From the sequence record PQ758395: a stretch of 64,000 bases of DNA; one strand, 5' to 3'. The DNA comes from Escherichia phage phita32. The notes beneath the pieces are model-generated. The model searched no databases, was not told the origin of the DNA, and was given only the letters and a program-made list of their open reading frames with translations. The position numbers were made by a program, and so were the translations under genes. This document shows positions 6,602 to 52,933 of the stretch, piece by piece. The number at the start of each line of letters is the position of its first letter. Within the stretch, counting starts at the first letter, position 1.

Positions 6602-9025
6602 ATGAGTATGTGGTCTTTCGATCTGGAGGCCTCCGGGCTTTTGGAAGATCTAGATCTTTATTATCACTGCGGTCTGTTTAAAGAGCTGAATAAGAACCGT
6701 TTTATGCTGTTCCTTCCTCTAAATGACCGCACACACTACTCCAAGGAGGATATAGAGAAGGCCAAGAACTTTATTCTGGCAAAGAAAACTCTTTATAAAG
6801 ATTTTGAAGTCCGCATAGCAGATTTTTCGGAGTTGGAAGGTTGGCTTACAGGCAATTCCGACTGGTCACCAACAGCTTTGAACTGCCATAACTGCTACAG
6901 TTATGACTTTATGCTGATGGAGAGATTATCCGGTATTCATTTTGATATGTTCCGTGATCCTAAATGCATGGGGACTATCAACGACCACCAGGTTAATCTG
7001 TTTGATACGTTGGCGATGAGCCGAATCTTGTGGCCTGATCGCCCTTTACCAAAAGGTTGTCCGGACTCTGTATTCAACCCGGTTACTAAGAAAATGCAGC
7101 CTGTTGGTCCTCACGGCCTTATGGCATGGGGCTACGCCCTTGGTAACCAGAAAGTTCAAATTGATGACTGGCGCGATCTTCCGTTGTGGAAGTATGTGGA
7201 TCGTGTATTCGAGGACGTTATCATCCAGGAGCTGCTCTGGAAAGAGCTGGTAGCGGAATCAAAAGGTGTATTCTACGGCAAATCTGACATGCAGAACTTT
7301 ATGTATGATCCTGCCAAAGAGAAGCCGAAAGGGTTCAAGAAGATCACCTGGAAGAACGCATTACGTCGAGGCATGCTGCAGCACTTCCTGATGGAGCTGC
7401 AGGCCCGTCAGGGTGTATACTTCGACATAGATGGAGCTATTGCTTTACGTGACCGTTGCGATGCGTGGATGAAAGAAATCGCTGATCGTGTTGAACCACA
7501 ACTACCTTTAAAAGAGCTGTCAATGTCTCAGCGGCCCAAGTTCCCTGAAAAGCCGTTTAACCAAGACGGGACAATCTCTAATAATGGTTGGAAATGGTTA
7601 AAAGATAAGCTTGGCTATCCTGTAGACATGAGCGCTTTAGAGTTCAAAGCCCCGCCTAAGCGAGCATTTACCTCTACAGGGGATGTCAGCAAGATGGGGA
7701 TAAAATGGTGTGAAGAGATGGGCTGCAAAGACCCCGATAAGATGGCTGATTTCTTGAGAGGCTATATTAAGGGTACCTCCACACCACAACCTTTACCTAA
7801 AGAGCTAATGGATCAGGCAATAAGTGATCTGCAGCAGAAGCGAATGCCTGACTGCAAGATACCTATGAAAATCGGCAATCAGGACGACATCAAGCGATAC
7901 CTAATCAGTGCTGGTTGGCTCCCAACAATGTGGAGAACTAAAGATGTAACTAAAGACAGCAAGAAGAAAGCTTTACCTGATGCAGATGTTGATGCACGAG
8001 TATATGCATACATGGACGAGCTTTTAGAGTCAGAGTATTGTGACCTGATTATCAACTTCTGGAACAAAACTGATGCTAAGTTTCAGACAACCGTGCACAA
8101 GTTCCGAAGCTTTCCTAACTCCGAAAGGATTAAAAAGGAAGTGTTCGGGAAAATACGTAGAAAAGCCAGGGCACTTATTACTTCTCCGCAACTGAAAGAT
8201 ACGTTTGGACACCTATGCCCAAATCTTGAAAAATTGAACGGAGAGATGGCTAAAGATATCGTCTTGTGGTTATCATTGCGAAACCGCAGATCGGTCCTTG
8301 ATCCAATCAAGGAGGATAAGGTTGATACTGGTCTTCTTAATCACCCACGTTTGAAGATTGACCATAAGCTTCCTGCTAAAAGCTCTGGATTAACAAACAC
8401 TTCCAGACAGAAACACAGTATTTGTGCAAACATGCCTAAACCATCTCCTAAAGTGGTTATGGGTAAAGAGATGCGTAGTCTGTGGGGTGTTCCTCCAGGA
8501 TACTTTGAGATCGGTATTGACGGGTCCAACTTAGAGCAGCTTATCGGGGCTTGGGGTGCCTTTGAGTTCGACAACGGCTTGTATTATGATGTTGTAAGTA
8601 ACGGAGACGCACACCAAAACAATGCTGAGGCATATACAAAAGTAGCAGGCAGAGAGGTGTCCCGTAACGACGGTAAACCTATCACGTATGGGGTTATGTA
8701 CGGGGCACAAAAAGATAAAGTTGCAGATATGCTGGACATCTCTCCAGAGTTGGGACAAAGGGTAATCGATGCACTCTGGGATGCCAACCCAGGTCTTAAG
8801 GGGCGCAAAGAGGATCTGGAGAAATTCTGGGAAGCAACAGGTAAGAAGTTTATCTACTCTTTTGATGGTCATGCTATCTGGACCAGATCTAAACACTCTT
8901 TACTTAATGCATACCAACAAAATGGCGGTGCATCGTTGTGTGACTTAGTTGGAATACTCATGCACCACCAGATGGTGAAGCGTGGGTGGTACGATGAAGG
9001 TGTTCGTCGTATTATTTATTACCAT
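6602..9025 (+). CDS. DNA polymerase, family A, exon 1 (3'-5' exo + palm motifs A and B)
   Basis: N-terminal FDLEASG Exo I-like motif; motif A YFEIGIDGSNLEQL; motif B RNDGKPITYGVMYGAQ; ORF runs 2 codons into intron before stop at 9031. Confidence 0.8.
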
Positions 9026-9301
9026 AAATAACATTGTGGCTTCATAGAGTAATCTATGTCGAATAACCTCTTTAACTGCGGGAAGCCTAAACCTTATGGC
9101 AAGGTAATCCGCAACGAAGCGCTCAAAAGAGCGAACGCTCAGAGGCCATTCCGAAAGGAAGTAGACCAGCAAGTGCGGTCGAAATGGGAGGATTCCTGTG
9201 GTTGCTTATTATAGGAATATGAGATGGTCCGATCCTACGTGAAAACGTATGGCTATGCACGTAATGGTGCGGGGTAGCTTAACGACCTACCTGAACTATT
9301 G
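9026..9301 (+). ncRNA. group I self-splicing intron (no ORF) in DNA polymerase gene
   Basis: Exon 1 ends in U (..UACCAU) pairing with intron GUGG guide at 9037-9040; intron ends in G 9301; P/Q/R/S-like core elements AACTGCGGGAAGC 9074-9086, TAATCCGCAACG 9105-9116, GCTCAGAGGCC 9137-9147, GAGATGGTCCGATCC 9221-9235; splicing restores motif C YHDEYQLQV. Confidence 0.6.
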
Positions 9302-9655
9302 GATGAGTACCAACTTCAAGTGCCTGACACACCGAAGTATAAGACTGTGTACACCTTCGACACAATTGAAGAACTGGAAGCATTTAAGGCAGAGCAGGAA
9401 GCCAAACTTCATGTGTTCGACGGTCATAAGTACAAAAAGGCACGCAAGGATGAGGACGGAAACGAAGTGGTTGACAGAGACGGAAACACGGTGTACGATC
9501 CTATCCTGAACGATGACGGAAAGCTTGAACTTATCTGGAGCCCTGTGGGTGAAATGGTGGTGCATTGCTTCTGGCAAGCTTCTAAAATGATGGGAGTCCC
9601 GTTCCAGATCACAGGTGAATACTTGTGTGGGGCTAATTGGGGTAGTTGCCATTGA
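9302..9655 (+). CDS. DNA polymerase, family A, exon 2 (motif C and C-terminus)
   Basis: Begins DEYQLQV (completes HDE motif C) and ends GANWGSCH, matching T7 pol / Pol I C-terminal signature; no start codon or SD of its own. Confidence 0.7.
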   Translation, partial: DEYQLQVPDTPKYKTVYTFDTIEELEAFKAEQEAKLHVFDGHKYKKARKDEDGNEVVDRDGNTVYDPILNDDGKLELIWSPVGEMVVHCFWQASKMMGVPFQITGEYLCGANWGSCH

Positions 9656-9666
9656 TCTGATAAGAG

Positions 9667-10323
9667 ATGTTTGCTATGGAAGAATGGAGAAAACTGGTTG
9701 GCAAGGAGGCCAACTATGAAGTTAGCAGCAAAGGAAGGATTAAAAGGCTGTCTTACCTGAGGAAGTACAGTAACCAAACAGGTAAAGTTACTTTCAAAGC
9801 TGTCCCTGACAGGATTTTAAAAGGTAGCGTAGACAGTAGCGGTTACATTCAAGTAAATGTGGATGGAAGATCGGAATTGCTTCACAGGTTAATTGCCGAG
9901 ACCTTTCTAGAGCCTCCTTCAAAAGAGCTTGTAGAGGAATGTAAGGCAGCAGGGCTGGACTATGTACCGATTAATCATAAAGACCATAACCGCCTAAACA
10001 ATGCTGCTGACAACCTTGAATGGGCCTCGCCTTCAAAAAATGCACAAGATGTGGACTACGATTACTGTAAAACAAGAGGTGAAAATTCATACTGTGCAAA
10101 ACTTAAAGAGCGAGATGTTGACGAAATATTAAAGCTTTCCAAAACAGGTATGTCGCAGCAAGCTATAGCAGATCTTTTCGGTGTTAATCAGATAACCATT
10201 TCCAATATCTTGACAGGAAGGAGTTGGGCATGGTACACTGGGATACCTAAAACCGCAAGGTGTAAAAACAAAAGGAAGAGATCCCCAAAAAGCATGTCCG
10301 AGCAAAATTTCTCGGTAAGCTGA
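9667..10323 (+). CDS. HNH homing endonuclease (NUMOD4 + HNH_3 + C-terminal HTH), free-standing
   Basis: EEWRKLVG..YEVSSKGRIKRL NUMOD4-like; INHKDHNRLNNAADNLEW HNH motif; C-terminal LSKTGMSQQAIADLFGVNQITISNIL helix-turn-helix. Confidence 0.8.
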   Translation: MFAMEEWRKLVGKEANYEVSSKGRIKRLSYLRKYSNQTGKVTFKAVPDRILKGSVDSSGYIQVNVDGRSELLHRLIAETFLEPPSKELVEECKAAGLDYVPINHKDHNRLNNAADNLEWASPSKNAQDVDYDYCKTRGENSYCAKLKERDVDEILKLSKTGMSQQAIADLFGVNQITISNILTGRSWAWYTGIPKTARCKNKRKRSPKSMSEQNFSVS

Positions 10324-10382
10324 TTGTCACTAATGTAAACTATCAACACATGGAAGTGTTGTTGAGCAAAGAGGAGACTTTT

Positions 10383-10667
10383 ATGGTAGTAGAACCAACA
10401 AAAACATTTACATCTATGACTATCCCTGTTATTATGCAGGTGGAGTGTGTTCAGGTATCTCAAGTGTGGCCTGGCACCAAAATCCCAACAGGGCCTGATT
10501 TCTTTCAGGTTGGGAAAGTGTACAATGTCTGGAAGGCACCAGATTGTTACCCTTTCATTAAAGATGACCGTGGAATGTTGTGGTATCTTGGAAATGATTT
10601 GACACTGCACCTTGGGAATGCTATTATTGCAGTATTCAGACTTAACAAGAAGGAGACCGATCAATGA
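10383..10667 (+). CDS. hypothetical protein
   Basis: Start moved from track 10350 to ATG 10383 with AAGAGGAG SD. Confidence 0.45.
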   Translation: MVVEPTKTFTSMTIPVIMQVECVQVSQVWPGTKIPTGPDFFQVGKVYNVWKAPDCYPFIKDDRGMLWYLGNDLTLHLGNAIIAVFRLNKKETDQ

Positions 10668-10891
10668 CAACTTTGGTTAAAGCTACTTTTGTAGAAGAAA
10701 AGATGACAGACCTGTCCTTCTTTAAAGAAGGAAAGACCTACGAGGTTTATTACGATAAAAATCGTGCAAACAAGATGATTAAAGACGAGGAAGGGATTGC
10801 CTGGTTTATCTCCCATCTGGCAAACGGTGAGTATCATATCTACGGAACCACCCTGCTTGCCAAGTTCGTAGCTGTTGAAGAGGACCTATGA
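10664..10891 (+). CDS. hypothetical protein
   Basis: ORF with AAGGAG SD, ATGA overlap. Confidence 0.45.
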   Translation: MTTLVKATFVEEKMTDLSFFKEGKTYEVYYDKNRANKMIKDEEGIAWFISHLANGEYHIYGTTLLAKFVAVEEDL

Positions 10892-11082
10892 AAGTAAAGT
10901 ATCTGGCTGAGGGTATGAGTAGGTATTTCACCCTTGGTGAAGAATATTGGCCCTTTACAAGCAACGGCGATGTATACGTGAAAGATAATTTCGGCACGCC
11001 GTGGTTTCTGCACTCTAATGGGCTGGGATACTCCATTTACTGTGGTGCAGTGAACAACACAACCCTTGCAGAGTTCGTTTAA
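10888..11082 (+). CDS. hypothetical protein
   Basis: ORF, ATGA overlap with upstream gene. Confidence 0.4.
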   Translation: MKVKYLAEGMSRYFTLGEEYWPFTSNGDVYVKDNFGTPWFLHSNGLGYSIYCGAVNNTTLAEFV

Positions 11083-11092
11083 AGGAGGTAGG

Positions 11093-11464
11093 ATGTTAGT
11101 AAAAGGTACCCACACAGTCAAACAACGTATTGAAGTTGAGATTGATGATTGTGAGCTGAAGCATATTTTACGGTCATGCTCCAACGTTTTGCTCCTTAGC
11201 ATTCTTCAGGAGCGGGCAGAGAACGAGTTCTTAAATGCACTGGCAGGCCGTCCTGGTGACTTCTGTGTGCGTAAGCGTGGTGACAACAAGTCATGGTTGT
11301 GGGAAATCGATGCCGACTGGGATTACCACAAAAATGAGGGTATAGATGAGCCTATTCGTGAATTGACAGACAAAGAGATTCAGATGTACAATGAAGTTTG
11401 TCATTGGGCAACACGCCAACAAATTTACCTCGACCCTGTGTGGCTGATTGAAAATAGCCATTGA
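11093..11464 (+). CDS. hypothetical protein
   Basis: Start moved from track 11066 (TTG) to ATG 11093 with AAGGAGG SD. Confidence 0.45.
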   Translation: MLVKGTHTVKQRIEVEIDDCELKHILRSCSNVLLLSILQERAENEFLNALAGRPGDFCVRKRGDNKSWLWEIDADWDYHKNEGIDEPIRELTDKEIQMYNEVCHWATRQQIYLDPVWLIENSH

Positions 11465-11489
11465 CAAGAAGTAAGATTAGATATAAGAT
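11461..11489 (+). promoter_or_regulatory. sigma70-like promoter (TTGACA-17-TAAGAT)
   Basis: -35 TTGACA 11461-11466, 17-bp spacer, -10 TAAGAT 11484-11489, upstream of gene 11541. Confidence 0.4.
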
Positions 11490-11540
11490 GCTTCACACAA
11501 ACAGAGCGTTGATTTTTAAATAACTAAGGAGACTGCCAAG

Positions 11541-11792
11541 ATGAAAATTACTTTGAAGCCAGAATGCGTTGCAAATGACCGAGCTTTTAAAGATTGCACA
11601 GTCGGTGCAATTTATGAAGCAGAGTTTTGTGAGAGCCCTCTGGTAAAAGCCCTTCTGGAAGAAGGCTCTTTATCACAAGAAGAGATCGATGAGCTGGAAA
11701 ACTCAGCACAGTGCCTTACCTTTAAAGATGATGAAGGAGACTCTGTCTGGTGCACTGTTAACGAAGTCGTTTTTGTAAAACCTGAACATTAA
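11541..11792 (+). CDS. hypothetical protein (tandem paralog A)
   Basis: ORF with AAGGAGA SD; shares AF(K/R)DCT and DD(E/N)GD..(W/F)CT motifs with the next gene. Confidence 0.5.
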   Translation: MKITLKPECVANDRAFKDCTVGAIYEAEFCESPLVKALLEEGSLSQEEIDELENSAQCLTFKDDEGDSVWCTVNEVVFVKPEH

Positions 11793-49250: not shown

Positions 49251-50222
49251 TCAGCAACCACAACTTCCGTAGTGCTTAACCCGTTCTATAACTTCCGCTT
49301 GCTTACCCTTATTGTAAGGACGGGAGTTAGGACTGGAAAGGTATCCAGACACACGTCGAATTACGCTGATCGTTCCCTCTTCATGGTTTCCACACTCTGG
49401 GCATACAAAGCCTTTAGCTGTTGCACTGAACTCACCAGAGAAACCACACTTGAGACATTTATCCACAGGCTGGTTGATACCAAAATACATAATGTGTTTA
49501 TATCCGAAATCAACAAGAGCTTCCAAAGCATCTAAGTTGTTTTTCAGATTTGGTGTCTCTACGTATCCGATGTTGCCACCAGAGGAGATCATAGCAAAAC
49601 CTTCCTCATACTCCCACTTATCAAAAGGAGAGCTATTGATCCATACTGGCTGATGGAAACTGTTGGTGAGATATTCATGCTCGTGCTTCAACACTTCAGG
49701 ATATTCACGATCCAGACAGGTTGCAGCTTTATAGCATAGACTCTCAGAAGGGGTGCCGTACAAGCTAAACGCTAGTCTACTTTCCTTCTTGTATCGCTCA
49801 CAAGCATCTCTCATGTGCTGAAGTATTCCAAGAGCTAAAGCCTTGTCACCCTCCCTGCCCAAAATCTGACAGGTTTCATACACACCAATATACCCAATAC
49901 TGATGGAAGCGTACCCGTCATAGAAGAGTTTATCAATACTCTCTTCAGGATCCAGGCGAGCAAGAGCGCCTTCACACCACATGATAGGGTTCTGCCCTGC
50001 CTTTGTTCCTTTTAGACGGTTAACCCTTACAAGGTGAGCCTCGTATGCAAGATCCAGGTATTCGTCAAGAACTGCAAAGAAATCAACACCTTCCGTTTTA
50101 GCTTTTGCCGCAATCATTGGCAGGTTAAGGCTAACAACGCCTAAGTTAAATCTGCCAAGGTATTTCTCCTCGCCTGTTACAGGGTCGCTATATTTCGATA
50201 AGAAACTTCTACACATTATGTT
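49251..50222 (-). CDS. nrdD: anaerobic ribonucleoside-triphosphate reductase NrdD, exon 3
   Basis: CRSFL..NLGVVSLNLP .. glycyl-radical RVSGYL and C-terminal Cys cluster, colinear with E. coli NrdD residues about 390-712. Confidence 0.8.
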   Translation of the reverse strand, partial: NIMCRSFLSKYSDPVTGEEKYLGRFNLGVVSLNLPMIAAKAKTEGVDFFAVLDEYLDLAYEAHLVRVNRLKGTKAGQNPIMWCEGALARLDPEESIDKLFYDGYASISIGYIGVYETCQILGREGDKALALGILQHMRDACERYKKESRLAFSLYGTPSESLCYKAATCLDREYPEVLKHEHEYLTNSFHQPVWINSSPFDKWEYEEGFAMISSGGNIGYVETPNLKNNLDALEALVDFGYKHIMYFGINQPVDKCLKCGFSGEFSATAKGFVCPECGNHEEGTISVIRRVSGYLSSPNSRPYNKGKQAEVIERVKHYGSCGC

Positions 50223-50993
50223 CAGGGTGGTTCGCAAGTCCACCCCCGCACCTTTACGTGCTGCTGCATGTTCCCATGCAGATCAGACTATATCTTCACA
50301 CTTAGTGTGTCTACCATTTCGAGTGTCATCGGCTTACACCCTACACCGCTACATTCATCACGGTTAGTCGTTAGGCATTTCGTAACAGAACTCGTAATCA
50401 TAGTTATTAGGCGCACCACGTTTCAGGATAGCAGATATTCTTTTTCTATCTACTCCTAAAACATCAGCACAACATCTCAGACTTTTAAAGTGGAAAACCT
50501 CACCAGTTAATTTGTTGGTGGCTTTCACACCGTGGCATCTTGTGTAAAAAGCATAACAGTTGTTGTTGTATCCTTCTTGCGTATTGTCTGGGCAAGCTCC
50601 CCACTCAAGGTTGTATACACTGTTATCTTTCCTGTTGTCCCCTTTGTGCTTAACATAGGGTAAATTGTCTGGATTTGGTAAGAACGCTTCAGCAACAAGT
50701 CTGTGAACCCTTAGGCAAACAGTCTTTTTGTTCTTGCGTATCCTAACAAGACGGTAACCTGTGTTTATCTCTTCCCACGAATGAATAATTCTTTCATTTT
50801 CGTAGCGGGTGCAATAAACATTGCCCATCTCGTCAATTTCATAACCTTCAAAATCACGAATTTGTTTTCTCATTTCAGGACTCCTCTTGGTCAGGAGTTC
50901 TGTTACGTTTAGCACGGGATTGTCCGTTCTGGAGTTTCCCCGTTTAGATAGATTTTACATGAGCAGTTATAGTTTACCCATGCTCGTTACTTT
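50223..50993 (-). mobile_element. group I intron 2 in nrdD carrying an HNH homing endonuclease gene
   Basis: NrdD frame breaks after KVTGSTDG and resumes at NIMCRSF with no start codon; upstream exon ends in U, intron ends in G (complement of 50223); junction uncertain by about 3 nt. Confidence 0.55.
50364..50915 (-). CDS. HNH homing endonuclease (intron-encoded)
   Basis: HNH_3 motif VKHKGDNRKDNSVYNLEW; C-terminal HTH SLRCCADVLGVDRKRISAIL. Confidence 0.8.
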   Translation of the reverse strand: MLNVTELLTKRSPEMRKQIRDFEGYEIDEMGNVYCTRYENERIIHSWEEINTGYRLVRIRKNKKTVCLRVHRLVAEAFLPNPDNLPYVKHKGDNRKDNSVYNLEWGACPDNTQEGYNNNCYAFYTRCHGVKATNKLTGEVFHFKSLRCCADVLGVDRKRISAILKRGAPNNYDYEFCYEMPND

Positions 50994-51275
50994 ACCATCT
51001 GTCGAGCCTGTCACTTTACGATTTAGTGGAACAGAAACAAAGTCAGGATAAATCCGCTCTGCAGAGCATTCCAGAGCTAATCGTTTCAAATCATAGTTAG
51101 GATCTCCAGGGTTCATGTTGACACCCTCTTCTAGGAAGAACAGCACTTTAGGGAACACAGGTGTGATACGTTCTTCACCAAGACCCATTTTGTGGACTTT
51201 CAAGTAATTTTTGGTAATCATTCTACCAAAGACCGAGGTATCCAGTCCTAAACTTAATGTGATGAATGGAGTCTG
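50994..51275 (-). CDS. nrdD: anaerobic ribonucleotide reductase NrdD, exon 2
   Basis: QTPFITLSLGLDTS..ITPVFPKVLFF..GDPNYDLKRLALECS colinear with E. coli NrdD residues about 296-390; no start codon. Confidence 0.7.
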
Positions 51276-52072
51276 CTGTCTCCTCCCTGTGTTTCCACAG
51301 GGCCAGACTATCTCTTACTCTACTTCAATAAGATAATAACCCTTTATTGTGAGATGCTTACCTTCGGCATTTCCTTCGATAGCCCTGTGAACGTTACCTA
51401 CGTTCAAATTTAAGGCTTTTGCACAGGCGTAGAGTGAAGGATATTCACCCACCAAGATTTTCCCTTTGTATGCCTGCACTTTCCTATAGCACTTACCTGG
51501 ACAAAGTCCTGTTCGGAAAGCATGTCTCTTATTATCTTCCGGCAAAACCCACTCTAGGTTAGACGGATGATCATTCAATGTATTGCCATCTTTATGATTC
51601 ACTTCCCAATTTTCAGGGTCTTCTGGGACATCTGGCAAACAATACAAGGCAACAACCCTTGAGGTTTGGATTCGAATCTTTTTACCTTTGTGGTTGAAAG
51701 AGTACATATAACGGCGTTTAACATGCTTATTACCTTTTCCATAACCTCCCCACAATATTGGGTGTAGCATTCCACGTTTTCCGTATACGTTTCCAACTTC
51801 ATCAATCACATAGTTTGATTCTTCACCATTAAGAATGATCTTTTTCATAGAGCCTCTCCATTTCGAAGTTAGTATTTCAACTAACCCCTACACTACTTGG
51901 TTCAGAAATGTTTGTCAAGCATCTCTGCCTTTCGTTAGTCGTTACAACCGTTCCAACTCCTGTAAGAACTAGTCACGGGATTGGCATAGCTTTCGCCTTA
52001 GCGTTCCCCGTTAGCCGGATTTACCGACCCCTCTTATGAGGTTAGGAGAGTTTTACAACGGCCAGTTTGTTA
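51276..52072 (-). mobile_element. group I intron 1 in nrdD carrying an HNH homing endonuclease gene
   Basis: Exon 1 ends ..AACGGU; intron starts UAAACAAACUGGCCGUUG, whose GCCGUU can pair with the exon end including the U-G wobble (P1); intron ends in G (complement of 51276); exon 2 resumes QTPF. Confidence 0.65.
51315..51848 (-). CDS. HNH homing endonuclease (intron-encoded)
   Basis: HNH_3 motif VNHKDGNTLNDHPSNLEW; C-terminal HTH; in same frame as exon 2, separated by a stop. Confidence 0.8.
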   Translation of the reverse strand: MKKIILNGEESNYVIDEVGNVYGKRGMLHPILWGGYGKGNKHVKRRYMYSFNHKGKKIRIQTSRVVALYCLPDVPEDPENWEVNHKDGNTLNDHPSNLEWVLPEDNKRHAFRTGLCPGKCYRKVQAYKGKILVGEYPSLYACAKALNLNVGNVHRAIEGNAEGKHLTIKGYYLIEVE

Positions 52073-52933
52073 ACCGTTGACAGAAGTTAACGTATTGATT
52101 TGATAGAGCAAAGTCTGCATGCTGTCAAATACGTCTTTATCTGTCATTTGCATTGCAACAGTCTCAGCATCTGGCAACCAATGTTCCTGGCAAAATTTAA
52201 GGTTCTTCTCATAGGTCGCTTCAGCATACTGTGCCAGATAATGATCAATATGGCTCATAGTCTGACCCCCATATTGAGCACTAGCTACTGCACTAGAGAT
52301 TTGGCTAAGGATTGTTGTTGCAACCCCTATTGACTTCGGCTTACTGACATGTGCGTTACCAATGTTGAATCCGTTTTCCAACATATCTGGATAATTTACC
52401 AAACAACAGTTTGTTAACGGACTGATCAAGTAGTCAAGATCATGCACATGGATGAAGCCTTTATTGTGCTCTTCTGAGACACGGTCTGGCAGGATCTGTG
52501 TTGATGCAAGGTGTTTGCTAAGGATGCCTGCAAGCAGGTCACGATGAGTGTGTACATGATTGGTAGGCTTATTTGCGTTTTCTTTTGTAAATTCATCACA
52601 AGTTCGATCCAAGAAGCCACTAATATCTGCAAGCAGTTTTCCACCTGCCTCTCTGTTATTATCTCTTGTCTGTCTATACTGGATGTATTCTCTGGCTGCA
52701 CATTTTAAACCCATATCCATAAGAGCATCTTCAACAAGGATATGGATATTTTTTACAGAGATCGTGTACTGGTCGGTTGGCAGATTGTTAGCAACAACTT
52801 CATTAACCGCACAAGCGATCCGGTAAGCTTCTTCTTCAGTATGTCCAGACTCAAGTAAGGCGGACTCTGCCGCCTTGATCACCTTAATTCCGTTATAGAA
52901 CTCTTCTCTACCGTCCCGTTTTACAACTTTCAC
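52073..52933 (-). CDS. nrdD: anaerobic ribonucleotide reductase NrdD, exon 1 (ATP-cone N-terminus)
   Basis: MKVVKRDGREEF ATP-cone start; ENANKPT..HRDLLAGI..HVHDLDY..NAHVSKPKSIG..YQINTLTSVNG colinear with E. coli NrdD residues 1-295. Confidence 0.8.

Follow-up and report, generated by a model that had tools for sequence, protein, structure and literature searches.

The 64,000-nucleotide (nt) stretch of Escherichia phage phita32 DNA analysed here (record PQ758395; the window) carries the anaerobic ribonucleotide reductase (RNR) gene nrdD on its minus strand, and this gene is very probably interrupted by two independent mobile group I introns, each with its own gene for an I-HmuI-type HNH endonuclease, so that splicing would yield a single mRNA of 2124 nt. 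Homing-endonuclease group I introns in phage RNR genes are a classic case. With a 4.3-kb query around nrdD, 302 phage records were matched, the best matches being Vequintavirus (rV5-like) phages of E. coli with 95-98% identity, and the window comes from such a Vequintavirus.

Exon borders of nrdD and the uninterrupted alleles

The coding sequence of nrdD lies in three pieces on the minus strand that are colinear with NrdD, and each of the two gaps encloses one open reading frame (ORF), called ORF1 in the first gap and ORF2 in the second. The layout is as follows:

52933-52073, minus strand: nrdD exon 1, 287 codons, 861 nt; ATP-cone and N-terminal part of NrdD
52072-51276, minus strand: intron 1, group I, 797 nt; exactly absent from PDX, Pr121LW and WM
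51275-50976, minus strand: nrdD exon 2, 100 codons, 300 nt; QTPF...KVTSMG
50975-50214, minus strand: intron 2, group I of the T4 nrdD-intron type (IA2-like), 762 nt
50213-49251, minus strand: nrdD exon 3, 963 nt; 320 codons and stop

Exon 1 ends in ...GUCAACGGU at 52073, and the first codon of intron 1 is an in-frame UAA. Intron 1 begins with UAACAAACUGGCCGUUG at 52072 and ends in ...GGAGACAG at 51276, and exon 2 opens with CAGACUCCAUUC at 51275; these are exactly the borders (52072..51276) given in an earlier note that had been made from the letters of this DNA. For intron 2, the same note had placed the borders at 50993 and 50223 (exon ends at 50994 and 50222), which are off by 18 and 9 nt when compared with intron-less alleles. 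Phage isim, which lacks intron 2, reads ...GGCAAAGTAACTAGCATGGGT directly followed by TGCAGGAGT..., that is ...GKVTSMG followed by CRSF..., other intron 2-less alleles (Pr121LW, PDX and others) agree, and this places the last nucleotide of exon 2 at 50976 and the first of exon 3 at 50213. Exon 3 opens with the codon of the catalytic cysteine, equivalent to C290 of T4 NrdD in an alignment with that protein, and intron 2 directly precedes this codon; the glycyl-radical motif RRVSGYL also lies in exon 3. Exon 2 has no start codon at its 5' end and is in frame with the upstream ORF1 (51848-51275 = 573 = 3x191), as had been noticed before, and an internal AUG at 51221 is used as the start by annotators of related genomes.

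The three exons (861 + 300 + 963 nt) add up to an ORF of 2124 nt with a product of 707 aa, which replaces the sum of about 704 aa obtained earlier. When the spliced coding sequence was compared with the uninterrupted nrdD of Pr121LW, positions 1-2124 were aligned with 97.7-97.8% identity, and an ungapped re-alignment showed 49 differences and no gaps, 6 of the 49 changing an amino acid. As this alignment over 1-2124 is free of gaps, the exon layout is not due to chance. The 707-aa product matches the Pfam families NRDD, Gly_radical and ATP-cone, and its continuous alignment over both junctions with T4 NrdD (PDB 1H78, E 3e-167) bears out the colinearity of the three ORF pieces proposed in the earlier note. 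In the comparison with intron-less alleles that the earlier note had suggested, each insertion is precisely absent from close relatives with an uninterrupted nrdD. The earlier observation is thus upheld for the three colinear pieces, the HNH ORFs and the borders of intron 1, and has to be corrected for the borders of intron 2. An intein was rejected, since in-frame stops occur directly after exon 1 (UAA) and three codons past exon 2.

Structure of the two introns and their HNH genes

Six introns with their ORFs cut out (those of the window, WM, Justusliebigvirus ECGD1, Vibrio phage F88, Felixounavirus JohannRWettstein and T4 nrdD) were aligned for intron 2, and RNAalifold, used without hints, returned P1, P3, P4, P5, P6, P7.1, P7.2, P8, P9, P9.1 and P9.2, with 32 of 73 predicted pairs compensatory. 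Replacing one spurious hairpin by the P7 pseudoknot brought the share of paired cells to 95.9% and gave 32 compensatory pairs among 74, as compared with 34-43% pairing and 1-8 compensatory pairs in slid controls, and none of 500 shuffles reached the observed values. The structure of intron 2, in which the 5' exon end pairs with the internal guide sequence (IGS), comprises:

50983-50976 (exon) with 50964-50957 (IGS), minus strand: P1, GCAUGGGU/GCUCAUGU, U.G at the splice site
50952-50947 with 50315-50310, minus strand: P3
50943-50938 with 50919-50914, minus strand: P4
50933-50923, minus strand: P5
50907-50895 with 50393-50381, minus strand: P6, a 13-bp helix
5' strand within 50369-50364, with 50290-50286, minus strand: P7, GACUA/UAGUC
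50364-50345, minus strand: P7.1
50341-50321, minus strand: P7.2
50309-50297, minus strand: P8
50281-50264, minus strand: P9
50261-50248, minus strand: P9.1
50246-50224, minus strand: P9.2
50214, minus strand: terminal G

The U.G pair of P1 is invariant in six of six homologues and the distal pair covaries between exon and IGS (C-G, U-G, G-C); in the Felixounavirus intron, P1 is GAUGGGU/GCUCAUC, a compensatory change of exon and guide. A hand-made pairing of P1 to AAUCCCGUG was rejected, and the IGS was supplied by the alignment with the T4 intron. The sequence of J8/7-P7 is AAGAUAUAGUC, with AAGAUA as J8/7, and in the model a P10 of 5 bp is possible between CUAUA (50972-50968) and the exon 3 start UGUAG. 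P7.1 and P7.2 are located between P7 and the 3' strand of P3, an insertion that we take to be the criterion of the IA2-like subgroup in the Michel-Westhof classification.

Intron 2 can be aligned helix by helix with the T4 nrdD (sunY) intron, which carries I-TevII and resides in the same host gene, and both have the identical IGS GCUCAUG. The likeness extends to the J8/7-P7-P9 sequence, to P7.1/P7.2 and to the 3' tail GAACAnnnuG. Stretches common to both introns are UAAAAUCU..CUAAACGGG, CAAUCC.GU.GCUAAA, AAUGCC.AACGACUA, the P7.1 hairpin loop GAUGAAUGUA, GUAGGG, CGAAA.GG.AGAC, GAAGAUAUAGUCUGA.CUGCAUGG.(A/G)ACAUGCAG and the tail GAACA...UG.

For intron 1, an unconstrained minimum free energy fold of the ORF-deleted sequence recovered P1, the long-range P3, P4-P6, P7.1, P7.2, P8 and P9, and all group I core helices are predicted to be present:

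52079-52073 (exon) with about 52063-52056 (IGS), minus strand: P1, CAACGGU/GGCCGUUG, U.G at the splice site
52050-52045 with 51859-51854, minus strand: long-range P3, CUCUCC/GGAGAG
52041-52013, minus strand: two extra hairpins (A, B) between P3 and P4
52011-52006 with 51980-51975, minus strand: P4, ACGGGG/UCCCGU
52002-51984, minus strand: P5/P5a with GAAA loop
51969-51950, minus strand: P6
51940-51936 with 51310-51306, minus strand: P7, GACUA/UAGUC
51927-51903, minus strand: P7.1
51888-51865, minus strand: P7.2
51853-51847 with 51323-51317, minus strand: P8, GCUCUAU/GUAGAGU
51302-51285, minus strand: P9
51276, minus strand: terminal G

The P1 pairing with its U.G at the splice site and the terminal G had both been seen in the earlier note. 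In a four-sequence alignment comprising three distinct sequence types, 93.7% of cells paired and 20 of 71 pairs were compensatory, the slid controls giving 36-51% pairing. Between intron 1 and the ORF-less type, compensatory changes were found in P1, P3, hairpin B, P6 and P9, at several pairs of P8 and in a small helix enclosing the 3' splice site, and the exon-IGS covariation in P1 consists of a change from C-G to A-U in the type represented by bov25_3 and the IMG/VR contig L016. CUCUCC/GGAGAG was taken as P3 because it covaries with CUCUGC/GCAG(A/G)G; a P3 formed via the 3' strand of hairpin B, as proposed by the Rfam alignment, was rejected for having no complement in the window, and a stretch of the Rfam alignment running into the HNH coding sequence was discarded as an artefact of the ORF insertion. 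The J8/7-P7 sequence is AAGAGAUAGUC, and intron 1 shares GUAACGACUA, GUAGGG, CGAAAUGG and AAGAGAUAGUCUGG with the T4-type core. P7.1 and P7.2 stand between P7 and the 3' strand of P3 in intron 1 too, and no subgroup name is given to it. Two hairpins between P3 and P4 are also present, with compensatory changes, in an intron of Bacillus phage S4-2 (L015, about 1416-1450), whose P1, P3 and P8 were misaligned by MAFFT, and its row therefore serves as support for hairpins A and B, P4, P5 and P9 only. A pattern scan of IMG/VR for the P4-P5 region of intron 1 retrieved a single contig, from another Vequintavirus.

The two ORFs are placed in different loops of the ribozymes:

51848-51315, minus strand: ORF1, HNH gene of intron 1, 177 aa; fills the P8 loop
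50873-50364, minus strand: ORF2, HNH gene of intron 2, 169 aa from the AUG at 50873, which follows AGGAG; in the P6 loop

ORF1 begins and ends within P8, with its AUG in the 5' strand and its UAA in the 3' strand of this helix, and the 3' strand of P3 provides its Shine-Dalgarno sequence, GGAGAGG. Similarly, the last codons of ORF2 (YDYEFCYEMPND, followed by the stop) double as the 3' strand of P6, J6/7 and the 5' strand of P7. Upstream of the ORF2 AUG, the AGGAG lies inside a hairpin (50898-50880; -12.4 kcal/mol, z -3.4), which, according to this fold, may limit translation from the precursor RNA. A sigma-70 promoter scan was at chance level (8 found, 8.5 expected) and no separate promoters are claimed for the ORFs. 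Both ORFs are homologous to I-HmuI, with which they were aligned full-length (PDB 1U3E; E 1.8e-4 for ORF1 and 1.8e-7 for ORF2), both match PHROG 59 HNH (E 4e-26 and 3e-32), and ORF1 matches Pfam HNH_3 with 29.5 bits (cut-off 24.8); the similarities suggest that both encode full-length I-HmuI-type HNH endonucleases. As ORF1 and ORF2 are only 29% identical, they appear to have been acquired independently. The product of ORF2 shares 47-51% identity with the enzymes encoded at site 2 by the introns of Vibrio phage F88 and the Felixounavirus, suggesting that intron and endonuclease moved together between unrelated phages.

Alleles in relatives, probable homing and alternative explanations

Eleven alleles were examined in detail, and in these the insert at site 1 measures 0, 257 or 797 nt and that at site 2 measures 0, 251 or 762 nt. 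Both sites are empty in Pr121LW and PDX, intron 1 only is found in isim, Mangalyan and WalterGehring, and intron 2 only in WM. JEP1 and "Campylobacter phage C2" have both HNH-containing introns, an uncommon state (2 among the records listed), and A135 and A147 combine an ORF-less intron at site 1 with an intron at site 2. ORF-less introns occur in bov25_3, A135 and L016. A probe for the spliced junction 1 was covered to at least 80% in one place in 94 records, full intron 1 is present in 27 records (97-99.7% identical), and intron 2 is covered over at least 80% of its length in 28 records. The ORF-less intron of ECGD1 retains the last 12 codons of the ORF and therefore has lost its endonuclease gene. 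The nrdD family thus shows, within one set of phages, all stages of the homing-endonuclease life cycle, from the empty site through introns without an ORF and introns with an endonuclease gene to introns from which this gene has been deleted.

Sequences flanking the insertion sites differ between occupied and empty alleles. At site 1, alleles with the 797-nt intron 1 have AACGGT before and CAGACT after the site, compared with AACGGG and CAAACT in empty alleles. At site 2, the following tract is linked to the intron:

50179-50211, minus strand: exon tract linked to intron 2; 16 of the 49 differences from Pr121LW fall within these 33 nt

This exon 3 haplotype is present in all five alleles occupied at site 2 and in none of the six empty ones. 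The flanking exon changes of occupied alleles are consistent with the pattern expected of homing with co-conversion. In such a process, each intron RNA would fold into a ribozyme after transcription, exogenous guanosine would attack the 5' splice site, which is set by the U.G pair of P1, and the freed exon end would then attack the bond past the terminal G of the intron. Two such splicing events would join the three exons to the 2124-nt mRNA for the 707-aa NrdD. During mixed infection, the HNH enzyme would most likely nick an intron-less nrdD allele near the insertion site, and recombinational repair would copy the intron together with some flanking exon sequence into this allele. Activity, specificity and nicking mechanism of the two enzymes are presumed here by analogy with their family.

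Several points weigh against this interpretation. The linked exon haplotypes could be due in part to recombination with a diverged donor and not to endonuclease-driven co-conversion, and the splicing of both introns is deduced from the DNA. The earlier note had assigned to each gap an HNH_3 ORF with a C-terminal helix-turn-helix (HTH); one ORF per gap is present, but ORF2 scores only 19.7 bits with HNH_3, below the cut-off of 24.8, and neither ORF reaches the cut-off for the C-terminal I-HmuI NUMOD-like HTH. A whole-window Rfam scan at gathering threshold gave no match in nrdD. The group I matches that the note had expected from Rfam are found in both introns when an E-value threshold is used, but they are below the RF00028 gathering score of 50: intron 2 reaches 35.3 bits, over its 3' third only, and intron 1 reaches 28.8 bits. 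The weak score of intron 2 is explained by its 510-nt ORF, which splits the core, and ORF-less homologues with cores about 89% identical pass RF00028 (70.4 bits for ECGD1 and 70.5 bits for an IMG/VR Vequintavirus contig); the T4 nrdD intron itself scores 105 bits. The natural 257-nt ORF-less versions of intron 1 (bov25_3 and an IMG/VR contig) are likewise below the threshold, with 29.8 and 27.4 bits (E about 1e-4 to 8e-4). The gathering score is set by curators and does not define group I structure. The low score of intron 1 is probably caused by the hairpin insertion between P3 and P4, where RF00028 mis-assigns P3. This hairpin pair is absent from T4-type introns, which makes the fold of intron 1 less certain, and its covariation comes from only three sequence types. 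The proposal of two group I introns with HNH genes is nonetheless borne out by the full group I anatomy, the covariation of the helices and the precise absence in relatives.

A split gene without splicing, of the type known from nrdA/mobE of Aeromonas phage Aeh1, would consist of free-standing HNH genes and an NrdD assembled post-translationally from two or three polypeptides. Such an arrangement has precedents, in that Aeh1 NrdA functions as a split protein and one HNH insertion in phage CB7 did not splice (PMC3653736, PMC7344957), and exon 2 offers the internal AUG at 51221 that annotators of relatives have used. A start at this codon, however, would remove 18 residues from the beginning of exon 2 (QTPFITLSLGLDTSVFGR), among them the conserved QTPF motif, and exon 3 would have to start at the catalytic Cys codon, without start codon or ribosome-binding site. 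Moreover, the non-coding sequence around each ORF, about 260-290 nt, folds into a complete, covarying group I core, and comparison with intron-less alleles shows the ends of the insertions to be exact to the nucleotide. In other phages, nrdD is interrupted by ORF-less forms of both insertions (251-290 nt), whose persistence there is sensible only if they are removed at the RNA level. We therefore regard a split NrdD as very improbable.

It is also highly unlikely that the introns are decayed and that nrdD, once spliced, is now a non-functional pseudogene in this phage. The poor RF00028 score of intron 1 and the indirect case for splicing would be compatible with decay. Against it, only 6 of the 49 nucleotide differences alter amino acids, 3 of these 6 in the flank of intron 2, the catalytic motifs are all intact, and both HNH ORFs are full length. 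The core helices are intact as well, with changes that are compensatory and not disruptive, and 27-28 other phage records contain the same introns with more than 97% conservation. Two mobile group I introns in nrdD remain the preferred explanation.

Some records of relatives already contain annotations of these introns. The nrdD of WalterGehring (BASEL Bas51) is entered as a join across intron 1, and those of ECGD1 and JohannRWettstein as joins at site 2, with borders that agree with those found here; in JEP1 each exon is listed as a gene of its own. For the BASEL phages, intron borders were annotated by the authors on the basis of comparative genomics (PMC8594841). In the rV5 genome paper, introns are reported in terL only, and literature searches returned no paper on introns in Vequintavirus nrdD. 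As many Vequintavirus records list nrdD as two or three "genes", the corrected borders permit join annotations.

Further observations concern individual relatives. The Vequintavirus contig L016 (IMG/VR UViG_3300010279_000001) has ORF-less introns at both nrdD sites (1728-1984 and 2285-2535), and its intron 2, with a short T4-like P6 and no HNH remnant, looks like a state before endonuclease invasion. The records labelled as Campylobacter phages C2, A135 and A147 (MG065655, MG065690, MG065644) are 96-97% identical to the region and classified under Vequintavirus; their host labels look doubtful, and the record of A135 is flagged UNVERIFIED. A second cluster of differences from Pr121LW/PDX, 9 synonymous changes in about 40 nt, is found at 49329-49365 on the minus strand in the codons around RRVSGYLSSPN, with two haplotypes among relatives, and may be a conversion tract from another endonuclease. 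The minus-strand gene order of the window is nrdA, nrdB, glutaredoxin, nrdD and nrdG. Just downstream of nrdD, some relatives possess an extra large ORF that is not in the window (L003 3829-4989, L012 3629-4621, L014 4351-5283), which WalterGehring has annotated as a putative homing endonuclease, Mangalyan and WM as hypothetical; the 49329-49365 haplotype did not follow the presence of this ORF in the few genomes checked. A third nrdD intron, suspected in isim and Mangalyan from a small downstream "nrdD" ORF and a 1161-nt ORF, was rejected, since nrdD reaches its normal stop and these ORFs lie downstream of it.

Comparison with known systems and other mobile elements

Apart from its likeness to intron 2, the T4 nrdD intron differs in its site, which is located between AYE and YEV and lies upstream of site 1 by 32 nt and of site 2 by about 330 nt, and in its endonuclease, a GIY-YIG enzyme encoded after P9, whereas intron 2 has an HNH gene in the P6 loop. 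At each of the two sites the 5' exon end, which is UAUGAGU in T4 and CAUGGGU in the window (50976-50983), pairs with the guide GCUCAUG. It is conceivable, if rather unlikely, that the two introns are one ribozyme that moved to an ectopic site by guide complementarity (reverse splicing) and then captured a different endonuclease. A separate and equally tentative idea is that the two-hairpin insertion between P3 and P4, common to intron 1 and the Bacillus phage intron, may define a structural subclass missed by RF00028. In four unrelated phage groups, a T4 sunY-type ribozyme occupies the second nrdD site, which immediately precedes the codon of the catalytic cysteine.

I-HmuI, a nicking HNH homing endonuclease from the DNA polymerase intron of the Bacillus phage SPO1 that cuts intron-plus as well as intron-less DNA, resembles the products of ORF1 and ORF2 over about 170 aligned aa, with the HNH motif (xHKDGN...NLxW) and a C-terminal HTH region, and is, like both, encoded in a group I intron. 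The similarity is remote (E 1e-4 to 1e-7), the target gene and site are different, and nicking by the enzymes of the window is assumed from the family. In Aeh1, an HNH gene also interrupts a phage RNR gene, nrdA; there, however, no intron RNA is involved and the protein is made in two pieces, whereas in the window complete ribozyme cores flank the ORFs.

Phage genes with several introns have been described in nrdE of Staphylococcus phage Twort (two introns, one with HNH), bnrdE/F of SPbeta and nrdE of Brochothrix phage A9 (PMC3653736, PMC7344957). In the related Certrevirus CB7, HNH introns in terL, the DNA polymerase gene (two), nrdA and nrdB were found to be spliced by reverse transcription PCR (PMC7344957). 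The Twort, SPbeta and A9 genes and the CB7 DNA polymerase gene resemble nrdD of the window in having at least two group I introns with HNH genes in one gene of nucleotide metabolism or replication, at conserved catalytic motifs (PMC3653736, PMC7344957), and differ in the gene or the phage group concerned. In a survey of 128 phage genomes, nrdD was the RNR gene most often split (PMC3653736). The two introns in one gene, which the earlier note had singled out as a dense load of mobile elements, are thus nothing unusual in this phage subfamily or among the RNR genes of phages (PMC7344957, PMC3653736). The nrdD introns are an ordinary example of a known selfish element, partly annotated in relatives already, and leave the understanding of group I introns or homing unchanged.

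Elsewhere in the window, a third group I intron, which is ORF-less, interrupts the gene for a family-A DNA polymerase at 9016-9251 on the plus strand (RF00028, 63.1 bits, above the gathering score). After the downstream exon of this gene follows an ORF for an HNH/NUMOD4 endonuclease of 218 aa, which looks free-standing, given that a second ribozyme was not found in 8800-11600. The ORFs around the DNA polymerase intron are 6602-9031, 9299-9655 and 9667-10323, all on the plus strand.

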